Source of the DNA: Sedimentisphaerales bacterium
Lineage (GTDB): Bacteria; Planctomycetota; Phycisphaerae; Sedimentisphaerales; SM23-30
Length of the DNA: 64,000 nt
Assembly: GCA_963663965.2 (NCBI GenBank)
Contig: CAXXFK010000033.1
Span: forward strand, 192,001 to 256,000
Direction of reading: 5' to 3'
Shown here one piece after another: positions 36,863 through 49,015 of this stretch; within the stretch, counting starts at the first letter, position 1; each line of letters opens with the position of its first letter. The position numbers and the translations under genes were made by a program. The notes beneath the pieces are model-generated. The model was not told where the DNA came from. It did not search any database and saw only the letters and a program-made list of their open reading frames with translations.

Positions 36863-39571
36863 TTATGGCAATATACTTTGAATAAAGGACAAGGCGCTCT
36901 GCAAGGCCTGGTCAGTTTTGGAGGCATCTTTGCCGCCGGCCTGGGCCATTTGTGGGCGGCCCCCGCCGCCGCCACCGACGATGGGGGCGATTTGTTTGAC
37001 AATATCACCGGCCTTGACGCCTTTTTTGATCAGGTCGTCCGTTACGGCGGCCAGCAGGGAGACTTTGTTTTCTTCGCCGATAATGGCCAGTACGGTGGCG
37101 GAACTGGGTTTGATTTTTTTGATACGGTCCATCTGCTGGCGGACCGCTTCGGGATCGGCGTTGTCGAATTTGCCGATGACGATGGCGCTGTCGCCGATGG
37201 TGGCGGCGGAGTCGAGCAGGGCGTCGACGGCGGATTTCAGGTCGCCGGCGCTGCCTTGTTTGAGTTGTTTTTTGAGTTTTTTGTTTTCGTCGATCAGGGC
37301 AGTGACGCGGGTAACGATCTGGTCGGGGGCGGCTTTGAGCAGGGCGGATAATTCATCGATACCGGCGGAACGTTCGGAATAATAGTCATTTAAAGCCCGT
37401 CCGGTCATGGCAGTGATCCGGCGAACGCCGGTGGCGATGCTCTCTTCGCGTACAATTTTAAAAGAGGCGATCTGGCCGGTGTTATTGACGTGGGTTCCGC
37501 CGCAGAATTCGCGGCTGAAGGCTTTTTCCAGCCGGTCGGGCGATTCGGCGCCGATGGCCAGGACGCGGACGTGATCGCCGTATTTTTCGGAAAACAGCGC
37601 CATGGCTCCCAGTTGACGGGCGTCGTCGATGGGCATGACCTTAAAGGTAACCGGCATGTCCAGATAAATTTGTTCGAGTACTTTCTGTTCGATCTGGTGG
37701 ATTTCATCGCGGGTCAGGGCTTTGGGATGAGTAAAATCGAACCTGAGATAATCCGCACAGACCAGGGATCCTTCCTGATGGACATGGTCGCCCAGGACTT
37801 CTCTCAATGCCCATTGGAGCAGATGGGTGGCGGTGTGGTTTTTGCGGGTGGCTTCGCGAGCCGGGTCGATGGTGATGATGACCTGGTCGTTGACAGACAG
37901 ATTCCCTTTTTGGAGAGTACCGAAATGGACCGTCGCGCGGCCGACATGGCGGGTATCGTCGAAATTAAAGACGGCATCGCCACTGGTAATGGCTCCCTGG
38001 TCACCTACCTGGCCGCCTGATTCGGCGTAGGCGCAGGTTTTGTCCAGAACCAGGCCGATGGTGGTGTCCGATGGAATCGAACCTGAACTTAAATATTGAT
38101 CATCCTGGACCCAACCGAGGATTTTGGCGGTCAGGTGTGTAGTGTGGTATTTATCTATATCGTGGGTCTGGGGGAGTTGATCGGCCAGGGCATCGCCGAC
38201 ATAGACCACGTTTTTGCGGGCTGATCGGGCCAGTTCGCGTTGTTTTGCCATCAGCTGGTCGAAAACCGGGACATCAACTGTCAGGCCTTTTTCCTGGGCC
38301 AGCAGTTGGGTCAGGTCCAGCGGAAATCCGTAGGTATCATACAGGCGAAACGCCTTGTCGCCGGGCAGTACGGATGATCCTGCCTGGAGAACTTCGGCGG
38401 CATCGGCGGCGAAAATTTCCATACCACGGCTGAGGGTACGGGCGAAGCTGGTTTCTTCGGCTTCTATTACCGTGGCAACGTGTTCGGCGCGCTGTTTGAT
38501 CTCGGGAAAACTATCACCCATGACGCCAACTACCGTTGGTACCAGCTTATACAGGAATGGTTGGTTGAGATCCAGCAGGAGTCCGAAGCGGGCGGCGCGC
38601 CGGAGGATACGACGGAGAATGTAGCCCCGACCGTCATTGCTGGGCAGGGCGCCATCGGTAATGGAAAAGGTCAGGGTTCGAATATGGTCTGCAATGACCC
38701 GAAAGGCATTGTCGGTGTCGTTGCCCAGATGGCTGGTATATTGTTTGCCGCTGAGTTTTTCAACGGCGTGGATAATGGGCATGAACAGGTCGGTGTCGTA
38801 GTTGCTTTTCTTTTTCTGCAGGACCGACACGATTCGTTCGAGACCGGCGCCGGTATCGACATGGCAGGCGGGTAGTTTATGGAGTTTGGCGGTTTCGTCG
38901 CGGTTGTATTGCATGAAGACCAGGTTCCATAGCTCGATGAAGCGGGCGCAATCGCCATTGACCCGGCAGGTGTGGCCGGGTGCGCCCTGTTTGTCGCAAC
39001 GATCGGGGCCCAAGTCGATATGGATTTCGCTACAGGGTCCGCAGGGGCCGACATCGCCCATTTCCCAGAAGTTATCCTTTTTGCCGCAACGGAGGACATG
39101 GTCCGGGTTTATATCGGTGCGGGTTTTCCAGAGTTGTTCCGCTTCTTCGTCGGCGGGGAGGTTATCGCCGGCGTCGCCGCCGAAAACGGTGGCCCATAGA
39201 ACGGCCTTATCCAGTTGGTAGACCTGGGTTAACAGTTCCCAGGCCCATTTAATGGCTTCCTTTTTGAAATAGTCGCCGAAGGACCAGTTGCCCAGCATTT
39301 CGAAGAAGGTGTGGTGGTAGGTATCACGGCCGACTTCTTCGAGGTCGTTGTGTTTGCCGCTGACCCGGATACACTTCTGGCTGTTGGCGGCACGGGTATA
39401 GTCGGCTTTGCGAGCGCCGAGGAACAGGTCTTTGAACTGGTTCATACCGGCGTTAGTGAACATGAGGGTGGGATCGTCCAGCGGAACGACGGAACTGCTG
39501 GGGACGAAGGTGTGGTTTTTGCCGATGAAGAAGTCGATAAAGCTCTTGCGAATTTCCTGGGAAGTCAGCAC
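36863..39571 (-). CDS. alaS: alanine--tRNA ligase
   Basis: FTNAGMNQFK, HHTFFEMLGNWSFGDYFK, NHTATHLL, EFCGGTH, GGGGGRPQMAQAGG. Confidence 0.99.
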   Translation of the reverse strand: MLTSQEIRKSFIDFFIGKNHTFVPSSSVVPLDDPTLMFTNAGMNQFKDLFLGARKADYTRAANSQKCIRVSGKHNDLEEVGRDTYHHTFFEMLGNWSFGDYFKKEAIKWAWELLTQVYQLDKAVLWATVFGGDAGDNLPADEEAEQLWKTRTDINPDHVLRCGKKDNFWEMGDVGPCGPCSEIHIDLGPDRCDKQGAPGHTCRVNGDCARFIELWNLVFMQYNRDETAKLHKLPACHVDTGAGLERIVSVLQKKKSNYDTDLFMPIIHAVEKLSGKQYTSHLGNDTDNAFRVIADHIRTLTFSITDGALPSNDGRGYILRRILRRAARFGLLLDLNQPFLYKLVPTVVGVMGDSFPEIKQRAEHVATVIEAEETSFARTLSRGMEIFAADAAEVLQAGSSVLPGDKAFRLYDTYGFPLDLTQLLAQEKGLTVDVPVFDQLMAKQRELARSARKNVVYVGDALADQLPQTHDIDKYHTTHLTAKILGWVQDDQYLSSGSIPSDTTIGLVLDKTCAYAESGGQVGDQGAITSGDAVFNFDDTRHVGRATVHFGTLQKGNLSVNDQVIITIDPAREATRKNHTATHLLQWALREVLGDHVHQEGSLVCADYLRFDFTHPKALTRDEIHQIEQKVLEQIYLDMPVTFKVMPIDDARQLGAMALFSEKYGDHVRVLAIGAESPDRLEKAFSREFCGGTHVNNTGQIASFKIVREESIATGVRRITAMTGRALNDYYSERSAGIDELSALLKAAPDQIVTRVTALIDENKKLKKQLKQGSAGDLKSAVDALLDSAATIGDSAIVIGKFDNADPEAVRQQMDRIKKIKPSSATVLAIIGEENKVSLLAAVTDDLIKKGVKAGDIVKQIAPIVGGGGGGRPQMAQAGGKDASKTDQALQSALSFIQSILP

Positions 39572-39878
39572 GTTTTGATTCCTTAATTTACTTATTATTA
39601 ACAGGTTATCTTTTGCCTGAGCTGAGGGGGGGGTTGCCCGTCAGCATGATAGATAGAATGGAATACTATATCATAATCGGGTTAATTCGCCAACAGGTTA
39701 AATTATGGGATTGAGTGAAAGCCGAGAACAAGAGGTTGATTTACGGGTATAGTTTGGGGAGTCGTAAACCCAGAGAATATGAGAGCCTGTCAATTAAGGG
39801 GCGCAACATGGCTGGGTGGATTGAGTTTTCTGTTCAATCCATGGGTGTTATGCACTGGTTGTAGTGATCGGGGCTACC

Positions 39879-40718
39879 TTATTTCTTAACCTCCTGGATG
39901 GGGATGTCGGCGGGTGGTTTAGTAGGGATGCCGAGGGCGTGGAGGGCTTCTTCGCCGTTCTGGTTGGCGAAATCGTTGAGGGCCTCGTAGCGGTTGCAGG
40001 CGTAACTGAAGACCTGGTCGTCAGTTACGCTGTGGTCTTTCATCAATTCGGGCAGGCGGTCTTTGATGTATTCGGGGGCCAATTTGGCTTCGCTGGGGTG
40101 CGTGGGGATTCTGAGTGGGTTGGGGATGTGGACGCGGGGTAAGTCGGGAAATGGGTACTCTGGCGGGTAGGCGTTGGGTTCGTTTGGTTTTTGTTGTAAT
40201 TGCAACTGTTGCAGTAGCTTAAGATTGGCCTGGAAGGTACGGTTGAGGTGGGCTTCGTAGCGGGCCAGGCAGTTGAAGGCGGGGACTTCGAGGGTGAAGG
40301 CGGTACCGACTTCGTTGTGGCGGGGCAGGTAGATACTCGAATGGGCGAAGGGCTGGTCGATGACGGTGTCTTTGCGGATTTCTTCGTTGGTGAGGCGGAG
40401 TTGATAGACGCGGGCGTCGATCATTTCGGCTTCGATGCGGCCGAGGCGTTCGAGTCGCCAGGCGGCCGAGACGATCTGGTCGGCGATGTGGCGCTGGAGG
40501 TAGGTGGTGGGTTTGAGGTCTTGTAACAGTGCGGCTCGGAACTCGAGGTAGGTGAGTTCGGATTCGCCGGGGACGATAAGGTGGGCGGGATCCTGGCCGC
40601 TGAGGCCGTGTTTGATGGCATTTTTCGATGAGATGGCTTTACCTTCGGGGGTTTTGGGGCCGGTGGATTTCTGGGCGTTGCGACGGTTGGCGCGTAGTCT
40701 TCTTAGGGACGATGACAT
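39879..40718 (-). CDS. hypothetical protein of the ANRRNAQKSTGPKT..GK..SS.NA.KHG family
   Basis: 279 aa with strong RBS CAGGAGG; recognisable N-terminal motif plus WRLERL..IE and LARYEAHL; function unknown. Confidence 0.8.
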   Translation of the reverse strand: MSSSLRRLRANRRNAQKSTGPKTPEGKAISSKNAIKHGLSGQDPAHLIVPGESELTYLEFRAALLQDLKPTTYLQRHIADQIVSAAWRLERLGRIEAEMIDARVYQLRLTNEEIRKDTVIDQPFAHSSIYLPRHNEVGTAFTLEVPAFNCLARYEAHLNRTFQANLKLLQQLQLQQKPNEPNAYPPEYPFPDLPRVHIPNPLRIPTHPSEAKLAPEYIKDRLPELMKDHSVTDDQVFSYACNRYEALNDFANQNGEEALHALGIPTKPPADIPIQEVKK

Positions 40719-41501
40719 GGTGGTACCTCCTGTTTTATAAATTTAAAGTTTAGAATTTAAAATGCAAAATTGTGGTATCCGCCATTCGGCGGATGAGTTT
40801 TTTATTTTTCGTTAAGATCGATATATTGTTAGGGTTATGGCAATATTTTAACCCATTGGCTTTGTTTCGTTTTCTGTTGTTATTCGCTATGCTCATGGTT
40901 GTTTTATCTTTCGCCTCCGGTGCGAAACCCTGCAGGTTCGCCTCTACGAGGCGTGGCGTGGGACAAATTAAAAACAATCGTTGACCGGCGGTCTTACGAC
41001 CCTGGCTAGAAACGGTCGGCTCCTCCTGAGGCGGATCTTCGACCTTCGAGCCTTTTGCGTTTGGGTTGCCGGTTCGTGTTGTTTTTGTTGGTTTCCATTT
41101 CATTCGTAAGTTATTAACAGCCAAAATAAATTGGCTGGTTGGGTCTGGTCCGTATCAGATAGCACTGGGCCATGCATGCACCCATAAGCTTCGCTTTGCT
41201 ACGCTTGAAGTCGCCACGGTCTATGCGCAGAGGGTCTCCGCTGGCGTGGCCGGTTTGGGCGGGGCGCGCCGGGAGTTGGCGGGTGGTTTGGGGCTATTGG
41301 GGCGACTGTGGTATTATAGGTTAATGTTGCTTAAGATGCAAATAAAAATTTATATAAATTACAAAAAAAACATATTATATGTTATGTTTCTATAGACAGA
41401 TATGGTCAGGGTGGGGGTGTTCATGGTTTATTTGTATATAAGATATTAATTCATAGTTATTTACAGATTGATTTGATTATTGCGATTCGTTTTAAAAGTA
41501 T

Positions 41502-41537
41502 GAGAGTTATGGGAATTATGAGAATTATGGGAGATAG
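41502..41537 (+). repeat. tandem 9-mer repeats (GRGAnnnnT-like)
   Basis: GAGAGTTAT GGGAATTAT GAGAATTAT GGGAGATAG. Confidence 0.8.
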
Positions 41538-41722
41538 GGGATGGGAGATTGGTGATGTGGGGATTTTGTTGCTATGGGATTATTTTTAGTAATGGTGTTC
41601 TGGAATGAATATGGAAATCGATTTAATATTTTATTATATTGATTCAAACAGGATTATCAGGAGCGCCCAGAAGAAACCTAAGTAATAGCAGTAAGACTGA
41701 CTTGATATGATTTTGGATAATT

Positions 41723-42352
41723 ATGTTTGAGCAGGCATTTAAAAATATCGACGATGTTCTCAGGAAAGAGGCAGGATGTACCACTGAACTGGATTATACC
41801 GAGCAGACCTCGTGGCTACTGTTTTTGAAGTATCTGGACGGGCTGGAAGAGGACGAGGCGACCGAAGCAGCGCTGGAGGGTAAAAAATTCGGCTATATTC
41901 TCGAGAAGCCCTATCGCTGGGAGAGTTGGGCGGCACCCAAGAATAAGGACGGCCAGATCGATCTCAACAAGGCGCTGACCGGCGATGACCTGCGCGATTT
42001 TGTCAACCAGAAGCTGGTGCCTTATCTGCATAGTTTCAAGCAGCGGGCCAGCGGGGCCAATACCATCGAGTACAAAATCGGGGAAATTTTTGGCGAGATC
42101 AAGAACAAGATCCAGAGCGGCTACAACCTGCGAGAGATTATCGACCATATCGACGAACTGCGGTTCCGGTCGCAGGCCGAGAAGCATGAACTGTCGGCGC
42201 TCTACGAAGAGAAAATCAAACGGATGGGCAACGCCGGTCGCAATGGCGGCGAGGTGGTGGTCCATCGCAGTCCGCAGGAAAAACTTAACGAGATTGCCGC
42301 GTTGGATGCTGAGAGCGCGAAGGTACTCAAGAAGATTCTGGGGTTGTTGTGA
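41723..42352 (+). pseudogene. hsdM: type I R-M methyltransferase subunit with in-frame internal deletion
   Basis: HsdM N-terminus (ELDYTEQTSWLLFLKYL...LYEEKIKRMGNAGRNGGE) is joined directly to a short helical C-terminal tail; the YTPR, DPAxG and NPP motifs are absent. Confidence 0.85.
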
Positions 42353-43002
42353 AGAAGAATGGGACTTATGGGAATCATGAGAATAATGGGAGGGATGGAA
42401 AGAAGCCTTCACAGGCTTCTCAGAACTCCCAGAATTCCCAGGAAACGCTTTTGCCGGCGCGAGGGGATTATCGAACGCTGCTGAGTTACCAGAAGTCGGA
42501 AGTGATTTACGAGATCACTTACCGGTTCTGCGAGCGGTTTCTTAAAAAGGGCGACCGGACGGTTGACCAGATGGTGCAGGCGGCGCGGTCGGGCAAACAG
42601 AACATTGTAGAGGGCAGCAAGGCGGCGACTACCTCTAAGGAAACGGAGATTAAGCTGACGAATGTGGCGCGGGCCAGTCTGGAGGAACTGCTGGAAGATT
42701 ATCTCGACTATCTGCGGGTGCGCGACCTGGCGATCTGGGACAAGGGCGGCCGGGAGGCGGCTTACGCCCGCAAGCTGGGGATGACGGAGCCGCTGACTTT
42801 CGAGCTGTTTCGGGAGTTTACCGAGAGCCGGCCGGCGGAGGTGGTAGCGAATATTGCGATTTGCCTGATTCATCAGGCGACTTATCTATTGGACCGGCAG
42901 ATCAAACGGCTGGCGCGGGATTTTCTGAAAGAGGGCGGCTTGCGCGAACGGATGACCCGGGCGCGGCTGGCGGCGCGGGACAAACAAAGGGGGAGATCAT
43001 GA
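42349..43002 (+). CDS. four helix bundle (IVP-like) suffix-domain family protein
   Basis: YRTLLSYQKS, RTVDQMVQAARSGKQNIVEG, NVARASLEELLEDY, FLKEGGLRERMTRAR. GTG overlaps the hsdM stop. Confidence 0.9.
   Translation: MKKNGTYGNHENNGRDGKKPSQASQNSQNSQETLLPARGDYRTLLSYQKSEVIYEITYRFCERFLKKGDRTVDQMVQAARSGKQNIVEGSKAATTSKETEIKLTNVARASLEELLEDYLDYLRVRDLAIWDKGGREAAYARKLGMTEPLTFELFREFTESRPAEVVANIAICLIHQATYLLDRQIKRLARDFLKEGGLRERMTRARLAARDKQRGRS
42361..42444 (+). repeat. 9-mer repeats followed by inverted 9-mer repeats (long imperfect hairpin)
   Basis: Four forward units at 42361-42396, a perfect 8-bp stem AGAAGCCT/AGGCTTCT, and four inverted units at 42409-42444. Confidence 0.8.
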
Positions 43003-43073
43003 GACGGGCAATGCGGCGGGATCATAACGATGGGGAGCGTCTGGCTGGTTGGAGGGCGGCGAATTGGGAATCT

Positions 43074-43217
43074 GGGAGGGATGGGAATTATGGGATGGAC
43101 CGGTCCGGCAGGGCAGGGGGAAAAATTGGCATGGGAATGACGGCGGTGGCCGGGTTGAATTCTGGGAATACTGGGAGGACTGAGAATGCTGGGAATTCTG
43201 GGAATGCTGGGAGTTAT
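43074..43217 (+). repeat. tandem 9-mer repeats downstream of the four helix bundle gene
   Basis: Two units at 43074-43091 and six contiguous units at 43164-43217 (GGGAATACT...GGGAGTTAT). Confidence 0.85.
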
Positions 43218-43468
43218 GATAGGGGGGATATTGATAACGCTTGTGTTGGCGTCGGTTATAAGCTGTTATCGATTTCGGAAAGAATTCGGTCAGAAATATC
43301 AGATTCATCCGGAACTGAATCGTAAATTCTCACCGACAGAGCCGGTGGATTAACTCATAATTCAGATCAAAGAACCCAGAATGCGTACAAGTTCTCAAAA
43401 TGGATATTAGCAGTAGTAAAATAATTAAGGATGAGCAACGATAATTTGAGAAGGGCAATGTTGGAAAA

Positions 43469-43900
43469 ATGATGAAAAGATGGAAAATACTAAAAAATAT
43501 TCTTTTGACTATGTTAGTGGTTATTGGAATTATATTTTCCATAGTTGCCTACCATGTCTTTGATCGTATGTATTGGTTTGGGATCGAGGATAGAGTCGTT
43601 TATGCTTATGAAGGAGTCATTTGTGCGATAGAAAAATATATCGCAGAGAACCAGAAACTGCCAGAAACGTTATCTATTGTTCCTCCAGAAGACATGGAAA
43701 CTATTCGACAAATGAAAGAAATTGCAAAAACTGAATATTATGTGATTCCTGCAAGAAATTCGTGGAAATTGGATGTGCTTGTTAGAGCCAGAGGGAAAGA
43801 GCGAGAATTTGTTTATGTTTCTGATGGTGAATTAACGCCTGAAGAAGAAAGTCGTTATTATACTGGTTGTCATGATTGGGTTATACTCAGGATGCCATAG
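43469..43900 (+). CDS. hypothetical membrane-anchored protein
   Basis: 143 aa, N-terminal TM helix, AT-rich. Confidence 0.7.
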   Translation: MMKRWKILKNILLTMLVVIGIIFSIVAYHVFDRMYWFGIEDRVVYAYEGVICAIEKYIAENQKLPETLSIVPPEDMETIRQMKEIAKTEYYVIPARNSWKLDVLVRARGKEREFVYVSDGELTPEEESRYYTGCHDWVILRMP

Positions 43901-43968
43901 AACGAATGAGGATAGATTTTTTCGTGTAATTTTAGTATGCACAGGGCAGTTGAATTCGGAAATTCTTT

Positions 43969-44499
43969 ATGAAGCAAATAATAAAAAAGCTAATCAGAAT
44001 CATTGCCAACATTACGCTTGTCGTGTTCATATTTTTTCTGTTATTTTATTTTATGAGTGATATTCGATTTACATCAGTCATTCCTGATGATGCGGAGCAA
44101 TACAATTATAGCGGATCATGGGAAAGCGAAAGAGTCCCTATGGTTGCAGGGAGGATTCTTGCTCAAATCCCTTACCCTCCTCCCAAAGGAGAACCTTTTA
44201 CCGTTAACGCCTATATTTATTACAATCTCACAAGCATATATCGCCCCGGTGAGTTTGTCCCTATGGTTATGGACGGTATGATTCAGGAATCTGGTGAAGT
44301 GGCTGGTGGTAATACTGAAAGCCCAATCATTTTACCACCTCGAATTAATTTTAAATATCAGGGAGAGCCAGGGCCAGGCGGAAAACAGACCATAGATTAC
44401 GTTAGCACATCAGACACGGACTTTATACAGATTGTGGGGGGCTATCGTTCACAGTCTCCTTATGATATTGGCATTTTTCGCATTCAGAAGATTCGTTAA
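43969..44499 (+). CDS. hypothetical membrane-anchored protein
   Basis: 176 aa, N-terminal TM helix. Confidence 0.7.
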   Translation: MKQIIKKLIRIIANITLVVFIFFLLFYFMSDIRFTSVIPDDAEQYNYSGSWESERVPMVAGRILAQIPYPPPKGEPFTVNAYIYYNLTSIYRPGEFVPMVMDGMIQESGEVAGGNTESPIILPPRINFKYQGEPGPGGKQTIDYVSTSDTDFIQIVGGYRSQSPYDIGIFRIQKIR

Positions 44500-44579
44500 G
44501 TTTGATCACCCAATAAAATAAGTTTTCGATTTTTATCTTATTTGCATTCAGTGTTTTCTTATACGAAAGGGGTTGCGAT

Positions 44580-45146
44580 ATGGAACAGCTACTTTGCATG
44601 ACTAAGGCCAAATGGCGTAACTGGCTGGTTCGCAATCATGAAAGCGGCGAGGCGATCTGGCTGGTGTTTTTGAAGGGGGGGGACACGGGGCAGGCGCTTA
44701 GTTATGCCGAGGCGCTGGATGAGGCGCTATGTTTTGGCTGGATTGACAGTCTTATCAAGCGGGTGGATGACCGCCGGTATCTGCGGAAATTCAGCCGGAG
44801 GCGGGAGGTCAGTAAGTGGTCGGAGGTGAACAAGGCGCATGTCGAGCGGTTGACGCGGGAAGGCCGGATGGAGCGGGCCGGGATGGCGGTGGTGGCAGCG
44901 GCCAAAAAAAATGGTTCTTGGGATAAGCCGGATCGTCCGGAGATGGGCGAAGAGCTCCCGCCGGCGTTGAAAACGGCGCTTGACAAGAACGCGAAGGCCA
45001 ATGGGTATTTTGAAACACTGGCGCCGAGTCATCAGAAAAAGTTTTTGATGTGGATCGCAAGCGCGAAGCGTGAAAAAACGGTGAAAAAAAGGGTTCAGGA
45101 AGCGATCAAACTATTGGAAAAAGGGGAAAAACTGGGGATGAAATGA
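44580..45146 (+). CDS. YdeI/OmpD-associated family protein
   Basis: WRNWL..NH, EALCFGWIDS, SKWSEVNK, WIASAKREKT. Confidence 0.92.
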   Translation: MEQLLCMTKAKWRNWLVRNHESGEAIWLVFLKGGDTGQALSYAEALDEALCFGWIDSLIKRVDDRRYLRKFSRRREVSKWSEVNKAHVERLTREGRMERAGMAVVAAAKKNGSWDKPDRPEMGEELPPALKTALDKNAKANGYFETLAPSHQKKFLMWIASAKREKTVKKRVQEAIKLLEKGEKLGMK

Positions 45147-45217
45147 ATTGTTCGACAGAAATCATGCCAGCGGGCATGATCAATTGTTAATGGTCACATA
45201 TTATGAGGCGCTGAATT

Positions 45218-45637
45218 ATGGCTAAACGAAATGTTAAAATGGTATGGGTCTTTCTGGTAGCGGTGTCGGCAGGGTTGAGTGGCTGTATCTGTCAGACGGG
45301 CTCTCTTTCGACCGGTTCCGATGCGTTACATGCAAAATGCTCCTATGTTGACCACAGTAGTTCCACCTGGACGGAATCCATTTATGTAAAAAAAGGACAG
45401 AGCGTCAAGGTGTCATACGAACTGATCATTGGTAAAGGCGTTTTATCTATCGGGTTTACGCCGGCCAATCAAACGGATCCTCATTATTGCTATTCGGCCT
45501 ATGACAAGGATTATAAAGGGAATATGGATGTCCAGTTTCCGGAGACAGGGATCTATGACTTTCGTATCGAGTCGAAGGATTTTACGGGATCGTATGATAT
45601 TTCCTTGCGGGTAGTGAACCACTATTTCAAGCGATAG
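45218..45637 (+). CDS. hypothetical lipoprotein
   Basis: Lipobox LSGC; beta-rich 139-aa protein. Confidence 0.7.
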   Translation: MAKRNVKMVWVFLVAVSAGLSGCICQTGSLSTGSDALHAKCSYVDHSSSTWTESIYVKKGQSVKVSYELIIGKGVLSIGFTPANQTDPHYCYSAYDKDYKGNMDVQFPETGIYDFRIESKDFTGSYDISLRVVNHYFKR

Positions 45638-45795
45638 CCACTTTACCGGATGCTTCGCGCGGAAAGATAAATTTCTATTCGATAAATTCTTCTGGACTAT
45701 TGATAAATGGTTTATAAAACTACCGGTCTTTTTGTTCTTATGAAAGATTGAAGGGATGATCTGTAAGACAGGTGTTGGTCAGAGTGATCAGATTA

Positions 45796-45804
45796 TGGTA
45801 TAAT
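45796..45804 (+). promoter_or_regulatory. extended -10 element
   Basis: TGGTATAAT, about 35 nt before GTG 45839. Confidence 0.45.
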
Positions 45805-45838
45805 ATAGTTATTGAAAAATAATTAAGGAGATGAAACT

Positions 45839-46204
45839 GTGAAGCTGATTCGACGCGTGAGAATTTTGTTACTGGCGGGGAGCGTGTGTTTGGGTCTGCT
45901 GGGGGCGACTTATGCGGGGATGTATGGATGGATCCAATGGGATGCTCATGCTAAAGCCGGGCGGATCTGGCAGGGGTATCCCCAGGCCGAGGATGAAGTG
46001 GCCGCGCTGATACTGGCAATGCATTCGTGCGATCTTCCGATGGAGCAGCGAAATCAGGCAGTCTGGGTCTTGGGGCGTCTGGCGGATGAACGAGCGCTGG
46101 GCGCGTTGGAGCAGGCCTATACGGGAGAGACCTGTGACCATGAACATGGCCTGTGTCAGTATGAACTGGAAAAAGCGATTCGACGTTGCGGCGGGGAGAT
46201 ATAG
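45839..46204 (+). CDS. small HEAT-repeat membrane-anchored protein
   Basis: RBS AAGGAG; RNQAVWVLGRLADERAL and LCQYELEKAI. Confidence 0.75.
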   Translation: MKLIRRVRILLLAGSVCLGLLGATYAGMYGWIQWDAHAKAGRIWQGYPQAEDEVAALILAMHSCDLPMEQRNQAVWVLGRLADERALGALEQAYTGETCDHEHGLCQYELEKAIRRCGGEI

Positions 46205-46324
46205 CCATCGGGTATGGGGACTATTTGATCGTTGGCATGAATATAGATTGGTTGAAATGCGTCTCTACTTGAGGTCAGGCCGGAATTATCAAACGTTATT
46301 GGTGTCTAAGTTACCGGTGTTGAT

Positions 46325-46390
46325 AAAAAACCAGCCCCTCAGTTTTCCGGCTAAGAGGCTGATCGTGGCAGGTACCACATGTCATCATCA
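46325..46390 (-). ncRNA. candidate trans-acting antisense sRNA (~66 nt)
   Basis: Own promoter and a 12-bp terminator stem + U6 that pairs fully only on the minus strand; 5' part is complementary to the RBS/AUG of ORF 39879-40718. Confidence 0.65.
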
Positions 46391-46396
46391 CTATTT

Positions 46397-46425
46397 ATTA
46401 TAGGGGATTTCCCTGAGACTGCCAA
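46397..46425 (-). promoter_or_regulatory. sigma70 promoter of the candidate sRNA
   Basis: Minus strand TTGGCA-17 nt-TATAAT. Confidence 0.7.
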
Positions 46426-47042
46426 ACGAAAATAAGCAGATATTCCGTCATAAAGCAAATTATTAAGGTGCCCTATACTGTGAAAATTTGAAACCCTTCA
46501 AAATCATCGTGTTTAAAAGTGTGACCATGATTTCCTGTAAAGAGAATTTCCTACATGCTGGGATAGGCTTGGGGGGGAGCAGAACCGAGTGGTTTCGACG
46601 GTTGCAAAAAGTATGGGACAGGGCTGATCAAATATAGGATTGGTGGAGACAATGACGTGATGGTCAAGAAGCTCTCACCATGATAGGAAGGAATATGTAT
46701 ATTATAGGACTATAATGGGTGATAATATTAGTATCTAATCTCGACTATTTCCCAAATCCTCATGCAAAGACCCTAAAAGCCAAATATGTTTATTAATTAA
46801 AGCTATACTGGTAATATATCATATTTTTGCGGGTATAATATGAAAATGTTTTATATATTTTGTTCAAATGATAGTATCCAAACTTTTTATTATATTCTTA
46901 TCTGTTGTTCATTCAGAAGAATTAATTATGGTCAAAAATATGACATTTTTATTGAATTCTACGGATGGATTTGTTATCATCATACACTGGTAAACAAAGG
47001 TGTTTTTTTAATGTAACTTCATTTCGTAAAGGATGTGAGAAA

Positions 47043-47855
47043 ATGAGAAATTTATTGTCATTTCTTTGTGTCGTATTGTGTGTATCTACTCTGTATGCCG
47101 GATATACCACAGGGGGAGATGCTGCGAGCCAGGCTGCTGCCACCGGTATCCTCGATATCGTATTCGCTATTGATACCAGCGGCAGTATGGATGATGATGC
47201 CCAGTCAATCAGTAATGCAGTCTCAAACGCTATTAATTCTTTGGAATGTTCAAAGGGAGATATCTGGGTAAGAGCACGTTTTGTGGGTATTGGTACGGGT
47301 CGTTACACCAGCACTATTTTCAACGAATCAATGAGTAGCTTAGGTTATTCATCGATTACGAATAGTATTGAAGACAATGGTCCCGCTGTCACTGACCTGG
47401 TGAACCGATACAATTGGAATAACGATGCGGTTGGCGATCAGAAGTATTTTAAAGCGATTGTCACCATTGGTGACGAGGGAACAGACAATGGCGATCCGGT
47501 GACTAGCTCTGATTGGGCCACTGCTTATGCGGCCAATCAAGCCGCGATTGCTAACGATGTATTTGTTTTCAGTTGGCTGGCTAATCCGTATTACGGACCC
47601 AGTACCGATCTCACCAATGTGTTTAAATATATGGCAGTGGGTGGTACTTATGGCAGCTATACTTTTGGAAACACCGGTGGTCTTTTTATTGACGGTACCA
47701 ATCAGAATCCTGATTATATCGCAAGCCAACTTCAAACTATTTTCTGTGTGGCGGGCACAGGCGGTACGACGGCAACTGTTCCTGTTCCTGGCGCGATCCT
47801 GTTGGCCGGTTTGGGTGCGATAATTGTCCGAAGATCGAAAAAATATATTAAATAA
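47043..47855 (+). CDS. secreted vWA-domain PEP-CTERM-like protein
   Basis: Signal peptide from ATG 47043; DIVFAIDTSGSM (MIDAS), TIGDE, and C-terminal VPVPGA-TM-RRSKK. Confidence 0.85.
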   Translation: MRNLLSFLCVVLCVSTLYAGYTTGGDAASQAAATGILDIVFAIDTSGSMDDDAQSISNAVSNAINSLECSKGDIWVRARFVGIGTGRYTSTIFNESMSSLGYSSITNSIEDNGPAVTDLVNRYNWNNDAVGDQKYFKAIVTIGDEGTDNGDPVTSSDWATAYAANQAAIANDVFVFSWLANPYYGPSTDLTNVFKYMAVGGTYGSYTFGNTGGLFIDGTNQNPDYIASQLQTIFCVAGTGGTTATVPVPGAILLAGLGAIIVRRSKKYIK

Positions 47856-47881
47856 ACTGAGTCCAAGGTAAATATTCATTT

Positions 47882-47919
47882 AAGCCGGCAATCCATGAAT
47901 ATCGATTGCCGGCTTTTTT
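47882..47919 (+). terminator. intrinsic terminator
   Basis: AAGCCGGCAATC/GATTGCCGGCTT 12-bp stem plus T tract. Confidence 0.85.
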
Positions 47920-48086
47920 GTCTGCATAAATGATGATTAGAGTTTTATCCCGTGATGGAGCATCTTTGCGAAATTGATATCGGCGAGCCTGATGGCAGTC
48001 GTGACGGGTCGAAATTCGCCTGACTGATTCTGAACCTGACAGGGGTAATGAGTTTTGCGGCGCAGTTAGCGGTTTTCGGTAAGCGC

Positions 48087-48124
48087 AAACAAAAACCCTT
48101 GTAACCAGATGGATTTACAAGGGT
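48087..48124 (-). terminator. terminator downstream of tRNA-Lys
   Basis: ACCCTTGTAA/TTACAAGGGT stem with a T-rich tail on the minus strand. Confidence 0.6.
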
Positions 48125-48133
48125 AAGGAAATG

Positions 48134-48205
48134 TGAGAGCGCTGGGATTCGAACCCAGAACCCACGGCTTAAAAGGCCGTTGCTCTACCATTGAGCTACG
48201 CTCCC
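48134..48205 (-). tRNA. tRNA-Lys (anticodon TTT), CCA not encoded
   Basis: Full cloverleaf: GGGAGCG/CGCTCTC acceptor, GCTC/GAGC D arm, ACGGC-CTTTTAA-GCCGT anticodon arm, CTGGG-TTCGAAT-CCCAG T arm. Confidence 0.97.
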
Positions 48206-48433
48206 GGCGGTATGGAGAGATCGATTCGCCAAACTGCCAAAGACCAGAACTTATACCGGAAACGAGGTTATTAGTCAAGCGATAAAAAAGGAATAAATCG
48301 TTGGGAACCGGGTGGATCGGGCCGATAAATATCTGTAAGAAATGAATAGACAAAATCATCGTGTTTCAGGGAGTCTGCGGAGATGGGCAGGCTCAAGACT
48401 GGTGAATTGCAATATATTGTAATATAAGGATTT

Positions 48434-49015
48434 ATGATGAAAATAATTGAGACTGGACTTCCGGGTGTGGTTATGCTTGAGCCCAGGGTGTTTGAGGATA
48501 GCCGGGGATTTTTTCTGGAGACTTATCATGCCGGGCGCTATCGGGAGGTTGGGGTGCCGGAACTGGATGGCCGGAATTTTGTTCAGGACAACCATTCCTA
48601 TTCCATAAAAGGGACTTTGCGAGGGCTTCATTATCAGTTAAAAAATCCCCAGGGCAAGTTGCTGTATGTGATCAGTGGTGAGGTTTTTGATGTCGCGGTG
48701 GATATCCGGAAGGGATCGCCGACATTCGGGCAGTGGTATGGGGCAGTTCTGTCGAGTGAGAACAAGCGTCAATTGTATATTTCAGAAGGGTTTGCGCATG
48801 GATTTTATGTGATGAGCGACACAGCGGATGTGACCTATAAATGTACTGATGTCTATACGCCTGGGGATGATTTTGGTTTGCTATGGTCGGACCAGAAGAT
48901 TGGAATTGAGTGGCCGATTTCAGAAAAAGTTAAAATCCCACTATTGTCAGAAAAGGATGCTTTGAATCCGACACTGGATTCGATAGATCCTGAGTTACTG
49001 CCAGTATTTAAGTAA
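48434..49015 (+). CDS. rfbC: dTDP-4-dehydrorhamnose 3,5-epimerase
   Basis: DSRGFF, QDNHS, LRGLHYQ, DVAVDIRKGSPTFG, GFAHGF. Confidence 0.96.
   Translation: MMKIIETGLPGVVMLEPRVFEDSRGFFLETYHAGRYREVGVPELDGRNFVQDNHSYSIKGTLRGLHYQLKNPQGKLLYVISGEVFDVAVDIRKGSPTFGQWYGAVLSSENKRQLYISEGFAHGFYVMSDTADVTYKCTDVYTPGDDFGLLWSDQKIGIEWPISEKVKIPLLSEKDALNPTLDSIDPELLPVFK

Follow-up and report, generated by a model that had tools for sequence, protein, structure and literature searches.

The closest described counterparts of the small RNA analysed here are the antisense RNAs of the insertion sequences IS10 and IS200. RNA-OUT of IS10 keeps the 30S subunit from binding by pairing with the start of translation, and its action in trans extends to every copy of the element; the block of 30S loading is established for both the IS10 and the IS200 antisense RNA (PMC4513863, PMC4265352). 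RNA-OUT lies inside every IS10 copy and is perfectly complementary to the transposase mRNA, so that repression scales with copy number, while art200 of IS200 is cis-encoded with 90 nt of perfect complementarity. ISPpu9 is a multicopy element whose long structured 5′ UTR is under the control of the small RNAs Asr9 and Ssr9 (PMC8450116). Type I antitoxins such as OrzO are short RNAs that pair with an mRNA and stop its translation (PMC3919570, PMC4147584). RNA-OUT, art200 and Asr9 are all carried by their element, and an unlinked RNA would differ from them. IstR is a type I antitoxin in the form of a short RNA with its own promoter and terminator, and dependence on Hfq is typical of the trans-encoded base-pairing sRNAs of enterobacteria.

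The locus studied here lies in a 64,000-nt stretch of a Sedimentisphaerales genome (the window; features in Table 1). It comprises a predicted small RNA unit whose 5′ part is complementary to the translation start of a 279-aa ORF. The unit is a real sequence feature and, judged by its sequence, would be a new variation on an established mode of regulation, directed at a multicopy cassette that has not been described before. Our preferred reading, to which we assign a probability of roughly 0.55, is that an Hfq-independent trans antisense RNA would cap translation of the whole cassette family. Like RNA-OUT, the predicted sRNA pairs with a start region and would act in trans on a multicopy element, and action on all element copies is common to RNA-OUT and art200. 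In contrast to RNA-OUT it is a single gene external to 26 copies, its complementarity is an imperfect 20-23 bp, and its target is no recognised transposase; the target likewise differs from that of art200, as Pfam, NCBIfam and fold searches gave no match to an HUH or other transposase. Thus, while the computed start-site pairing agrees with the cis-encoded transposon antisense class, the sRNA is not encoded within the element and is therefore not a member of the RNA-OUT/art200 class. The cassette resembles ISPpu9 in being multicopy with a long structured 5′ leader, but Asr9 and Ssr9 are element-encoded and Asr9 activates translation, whereas the sRNA here is unlinked and a proposed repressor.

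By sequence features the sRNA falls into the trans-encoded base-pairing class, with its own promoter and terminator, a separate locus and partial complementarity. It departs from that class in Hfq dependence: profile PF17209 had no match in the genome (94.6% complete), the same profile being matched in 5 of 14 genomes, and a genome with no Hfq match suits a long duplex. The literature, at partial coverage and without supplements, held no description of the 279-aa protein family, nor did the accessible part of PMC3469429, and contained no unlinked sRNA repressing a bacterial multicopy element. If the preferred reading is true, one RNA that is encoded apart from the element and fits every copy would amount to host-style, sequence-specific silencing of a repeat family and would mark the 279-aa ORF as something that the cell limits.

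Table 1. Features of the small RNA unit and of the cassette copy in the window (positions count from the first nucleotide of the window)
Feature	Position	Strand	Remarks
sRNA promoter, sigma70-type	46397..46425	minus	Predicted from consensus match alone; -35 at 46425-46420, -10 at 46402-46397, 17-nt spacer
Predicted sRNA, 66-68 nt	46325..46392	minus	Start at 46392-46390 estimated from -10 spacing
Antisense seed, sRNA nt 1-23	46370..46392	minus	Pairs with AUG, codons 2-5, spacer and SD
sRNA intrinsic terminator	46325..46364	minus	14-bp stem with G-U pairs, 8-nt loop, U6
279-aa ORF	39879..40718	minus	One of 26 intact unannotated copies; N-terminal small-terminase-like motif, long helical hairpin
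Target site of window copy	40705..40728	minus	SD (3′ half) through spacer and AUG into the first codons; 14th among 30,359 windows
Leader of window copy	40719..41312	minus	Long; shuffled hairpin modules common to other copies
Cassette promoter of window copy	41313..41342	minus	Consensus kept in 22 of 26 copies
Terminator-like hairpin	40776..40795	plus	Antisense-facing to cassette mRNA
Short 3′ hairpin past stop codon	39817..39841	minus	Close to 3′ end of shared sequence

The promoter originally proposed for the unit (TTGGCA-17-TATAAT, 46425-46397) was recovered with 11 of 12 consensus positions and ranks first among the 36 promoter-like sites of the region 39000-49000. The proposal of an approximately 66-nt unit ending in a strand-specific terminator, with three G-U pairs and U6, was also borne out, at a length of 66-68 nt. 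For the terminator hairpin (46364-46329) 14 pairs are predicted, which include the 12 described at first; it heads the terminator list of the same region, and folded alone it has a z score of -5.0, with an equal fold in none of 200 shuffles. The 68-nt unit folds at -27.2 kcal/mol on the minus strand (z -3.8) versus -17.0 kcal/mol on the plus strand (z -1.5). A weak 5-bp hairpin at sRNA nt 15-28, which had escaped the original prediction, presents the anti-SD bases in its loop. The unit is single-copy in the genome by blastn, its locus lies outside all cassettes and was read identically in two DNA runs from a single sample, possibly the source sample, and no Rfam covariance model matched 46325-46425 at E up to 5. 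Two other functions were rejected, namely a leaderless peptide, as the frame passes the terminator without a stop, and a terminator serving the plus-strand gene 45839-46204, as the plus-strand fold is weak and the U run is missing.

Re-computation of the duplex between 46389-46370 and 40728-40708 gave the 20 bp with one G-U pair and one bulge over SD and AUG that had been described, and with most other copies the duplex grows to 23 bp if the RNA starts near 46392. The paired segment runs from the predicted start of the sRNA and ends ahead of the terminator. A single-stranded 5′ tail of 14 nt, the opening of which costs 0.46, lies opposite the AUG and codons 2-5; next come the bases opposite spacer and SD, the anti-SD part being situated in a 4-nt loop. 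The bulge of 1-2 nt coincides with the variable stretch of the SD-AUG spacer. Including the opening costs, the net interaction amounts to -14.9 to -26.6 kcal/mol over all 26 copies. Codon 3 is perfectly complementary to the seed in none of them (14 G, 12 T), and synonymous sites within the paired region vary among copies.

Under the preferred reading a stand-alone, probably constitutive gene would make the 66-68-nt RNA, as the promoter and terminator consensus suggest. Its unpaired 5′ tail would nucleate on the AUG and first codons of cassette mRNAs, pairing would zip on across the spacer into the 3′ half of the SD to give the computed duplex of 20-23 bp with its 1-2-nt bulge, and this duplex would block 30S loading on cassette mRNAs without Hfq. 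As the target site is nearly identical in the 26 copies, one RNA gene could cap translation of a dispersed family.

A ranking of the RNA against all start regions of the genome and the paralogues had been suggested with the original prediction. When the first 29 nt were compared with 30,359 candidate start windows and ordered by energy, the cassette copies took ranks 1-23 and 28-30. The best-pairing copy lies on the same contig, 194 kb off, at -41.5 kcal/mol, and the window copy pairs at -36.6 kcal/mol; non-element windows average -14.1 kcal/mol (s.d. 3.8), the best of them reaching -34.5 kcal/mol. The claim that the gene 5.6 kb away is a special partner has to be given up, as this gene is one of 26 copies and stands 14th in pairing. 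With 4.07% of the genome within 5.7 kb of some copy, nearness to one of them is weak evidence. The proposal of an undescribed trans-acting silencer thus remains the best reading with respect to pairing at the ribosome binding site and start of all 26 copies, but not in its tie to the nearest gene.

Could the match be a coincidence, the unit being a short promoter-terminator pair that serves some other role, or no role at all, and is similar to the cassette start region by accident? We consider this unlikely. The real seed has an alignment score of 18, and none of 1,000 dinucleotide shuffles reaches 17 over all start windows, which corresponds to less than about 0.02 after correction for 20 units; the remaining 19 promoter-terminator units score at most 16. 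The match is moreover antisense, lies over SD and AUG, fills the 5′ single-stranded part and falls on a 26-copy family. At thresholds that, for the unit and match scans alike, were chosen once the unit had been seen, 4 strict units (promoter at least 11/12, terminator -20 or better) were counted where 0.34 would be expected, while lenient ones are at chance level (20 observed, 22.6 expected). The latter count favours coincidence, as do the failure to find a counterpart in relatives and the selection of the finding for having both parts in one window. In the same direction, a reverse scan of the genome gives the sRNA site (19) a marginal lead over unrelated sites, three of which score 18 and five 17, and by energy ratio among the 20 units the sRNA unit is narrowly first (0.73 vs 0.70). 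Because the bare match is only marginally best, the signal lies in the conjunction of match and promoter-terminator frame. Among 158 non-element sites scoring at least 14, an antisense promoter is present in 6 and a terminator in 2, and both occur together only at the sRNA site. When 79 multicopy start groups with 4,313 sites were scanned, promoter and terminator came together in six rows; two of these are the sRNA unit, which is the clear best, the other four having scores of 14-16 and promoters of 9-10/12.

The target ORF (39879-40718) had been described as one gene of an unfamiliar protein family. It is indeed unannotated, but it is not a lone gene: its presence in 26 copies had been overlooked. 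The genome holds these 26 full-length copies and two fragments, dispersed on many contigs. The copies share 94-98% amino acid identity with the window copy and are 89-96% identical in DNA. A pN/pS of 0.11 and the failure of 4,747 of 8,515 informative site pairs in the four-gamete test point to purifying selection on the copies and to extensive mosaicism. An assembly artefact is rejected by a read depth over the ORF of 110-134, compared with about 3.3 on unique DNA, in run X1, the runs being possibly from the source sample.

Leaders of about 0.5-1.5 kb, built from shuffled hairpin modules, precede the ORF. The cassette promoter consensus is kept in 22 of 26 copies and is often preceded by an AT-rich palindrome, and the shared sequence reaches about 200 nt farther upstream than the promoter. 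SOS control of the cassette was rejected, as visual inspection showed no such palindrome in front of recA or lexA. The antisense-facing terminator-like hairpin occurs in the leaders of 11 of 26 copies, and no matching antisense promoter above 7/12 was found in the first 250 coding nt of the 26. The 3′ hairpin is conserved in shape and variable in sequence. No consistent terminal inverted or direct repeats or target duplications were found in the 22 copies examined. In another genome (G169), four dispersed loci (L039, L041-L044) lack the same internal stretch of about 440 nt that a longer copy contains and look like non-autonomous cassette derivatives. These shared deletions, together with the dispersal of the copies, suggest that the cassette is probably mobile.

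Several further arrangements were seen around the cassettes. One copy precedes recA by about 0.85 kb in the same orientation (C25:249378-251860). A 411-aa ORF, which from reading its sequence we take to be an IS110-type transposase, is inserted in reverse in the leaders of two copies (C3:47962, C36:5472). Leader-module arrays with a period of about 270-350 nt occur free of the ORF at C32:170311-171596, C42:49480-50785, C28:583545-584182 and other places. A second multicopy ORF family of about 261 aa (66-97% identity, some members frameshifted) has 14 starts, for example C10:77863 on the minus strand, located on C1, C2, C10, C11, C13, C15, C22, C27, C28, C30, C35 and C41; its promoter and AT-rich palindrome are related to those of the cassette, the same kind of leader modules comes after the ORF, and the scan of multicopy start groups contained no antisense unit for it.

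Next in plausibility to coincidence, and likewise unlikely, is that the seed is a true piece of the cassette start, captured or left over, which is transcribed weakly or not at all and has no effect on the family. The plus strand at the sRNA locus reads the first five codons of the ORF, the family is highly recombinogenic and leaves fragments, and its 26 copies stay intact under purifying selection, all of which would fit an inert remnant. On the other side, a near-consensus promoter and a strand-specific terminator frame the fragment exactly, and homology is nil on either side of the 24-nt match. The original prediction had itself raised a decayed duplicate of the gene's 5′ end as a source of the match. 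Comparison with the leader and the ORF left the antisense reading intact: past the 24 nt, 11-15 of 45 positions are identical in register in the first six copies, and local alignment scores fall below those of shuffled controls. Since homology does not continue past the match, the sRNA locus is not a decayed gene copy. Under the preferred reading the seed would most likely have arisen when a small stretch of the cassette's start region was captured between a promoter and a terminator.

The 279-aa window protein matched no Pfam or NCBIfam family, and no Pfam family was found for any of 93 aligned family members. Homologues at E 0.001 or better number 968, and those that match best outside the source genome share about 35-40% identity over about 60-80% of the length. 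A family match occurs in 70 of 401 genomes of the class, a tally that includes one unpublished genome (G311), which enters no other result, and named homologue records include Phycisphaerae, Acidobacteriota and Alphaproteobacteria; the family is widespread and often multicopy, with mosaic hairpin leaders. The AlphaFold model is all-helical with a long hairpin (pLDDT 75, pTM 0.55), and according to this model the protein is soluble and helical. Foldseek returned no match at E 0.001 in PDB or BFVD, the best structural Z of 7.4 being to generic helical hairpins. A profile search of the PDB gave no match, and the ESM Atlas gave unnamed clusters only.

Most matches on viral contigs cover just residues ~8-39 of the protein, and in 15 of 18 viral loci inspected the matching protein lies directly before an ORF of 550-643 aa; its N-terminus therefore resembles a small-terminase motif. 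One matching viral protein matched TerS profiles and one of four downstream ORFs matched TerL, while weak similarity to TerS profiles (E 0.002-0.006) was seen in 3 of the 93 aligned members. With phage terminase small subunits (phrog_1889, phrog_9231) the target protein has only this N-terminal motif in common. It differs from a small terminase at the window copy, where the protein itself has no PHROG match and no TerL gene is adjacent.

The co-occurrence of sRNA and target that the original prediction anticipated in relatives was looked for in ten genomes and at 211 homologue loci, none close to the source genome, and was not found. In the ten genomes (G169, G291, G341, G405, G256, G030, G010, G008, G427, G428), each searched with 18-21 nt of its own start region at up to 3 mismatches, no non-element match had a promoter-seed-terminator layout. 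The same kind of search recovers the sRNA unit in the source genome, among 8 non-element matches. A generic pattern of promoter and anti-start applied to 60 family-bearing genomes gave 73 matches outside the source genome, of which 70 were inspected: three have weak terminators, and none resembles a known family start in a comparison that excluded the start of G131. For G036, G319 and G400 one start-region pattern was uninformative, as it did not match their own copies. The flanks of the 211 loci (3.25 Mb) contained no analogous unit, with a best score of 16, and covariation thus lends no support. Because the relative genomes are mostly incomplete and have fewer copies, and the tests require consensus promoters or near-ungapped matches, a counterpart is to be regarded as not found rather than absent.

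OrzO and IstR resemble the predicted sRNA as short RNAs with their own promoter and terminator that pair with a target mRNA. It is nevertheless very unlikely that the cassette protein is harmful and the RNA an antitoxin common to all copies. Pairing over the start region is the type I mechanism (PMC4147584, PMC3919570). The target, however, is a protein of 279 aa that is soluble and helical in the model and not a small hydrophobic toxin; the RNA adjoins no copy, the nearest being 5.6 kb off, and one RNA would serve 26 loci; and relatives have the gene with no such RNA found. The analogy to type I antitoxins and transposase silencers drawn at the outset consequently stands for the mode of pairing at the ribosome binding site and fails for type I, with a helical 279-aa target that is not adjacent.

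A compact Cas9-type locus lies on the same contig (C33:84000-89750), with a 1057-aa ORF and two smaller ones, an array in which a 36-nt repeat occurs 18 times, and a 23-nt anti-repeat upstream; from reading the sequences we take it to be Cas9-Cas1-Cas2-like and of type II-C. A scaRNA-like small guide of Cas9 carries a repeat-like segment able to pair with tracrRNA. The least probable reading is that the RNA acts on cassette DNA or RNA as a guide for a protein, such as the type II-C Cas9 or a cassette-encoded factor, and not by plain pairing: its spacer-like 5′ segment followed by a hairpin and the presence of the CRISPR array on its contig would fit, but the sRNA is absent from the genome's matches to the 36-nt repeat and its pairing with the repeat is weak (-14.9 and -17.2 kcal/mol), and no match to the cassette or the own genome exists among 17 spacers, so that a CRISPR-linked or scaRNA-like guide is rejected, and the bulged duplex fits RNA-RNA pairing.

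The preferred reading, a trans antisense RNA acting by pairing, can tentatively be carried further. It is possible, though rather doubtful, that the host lineage made itself a silencer independent of CRISPR from about 24 nt of the translation start of an invading element, captured between a promoter and a terminator, and that this one small RNA restrains an entire expanding, undescribed family of mobile cassettes with a small-terminase-like DNA-binding motif and no recognisable transposase.

Other short units with promoter and terminator were noted elsewhere in the genome. Two identical units of about 90 nt lie at C22:91209 (+) and C24:3608 (-) (L418); they had no Rfam match and no antisense target was found for them, and the ORFs just downstream presumably correspond to an integrase N-terminus. 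Two more lie at C13:25701 (-) and C15:287871 (+) (L419, L420), the latter of which matches a candidate start on C41 in antisense at a score of 16 and has an Rfam hit to DapZ that stays below threshold. Within the window, an exact 16-nt direct repeat (46499-46514 and 48351-48366) flanks the gene 46965-47855 and a tRNA-Lys (48133-48205), the 3′ end of which has no second copy elsewhere in the genome. Purine-rich repeats with a 9-nt period surround an HsdM N-terminal fragment and a four-helix-bundle gene at 41487-43222.
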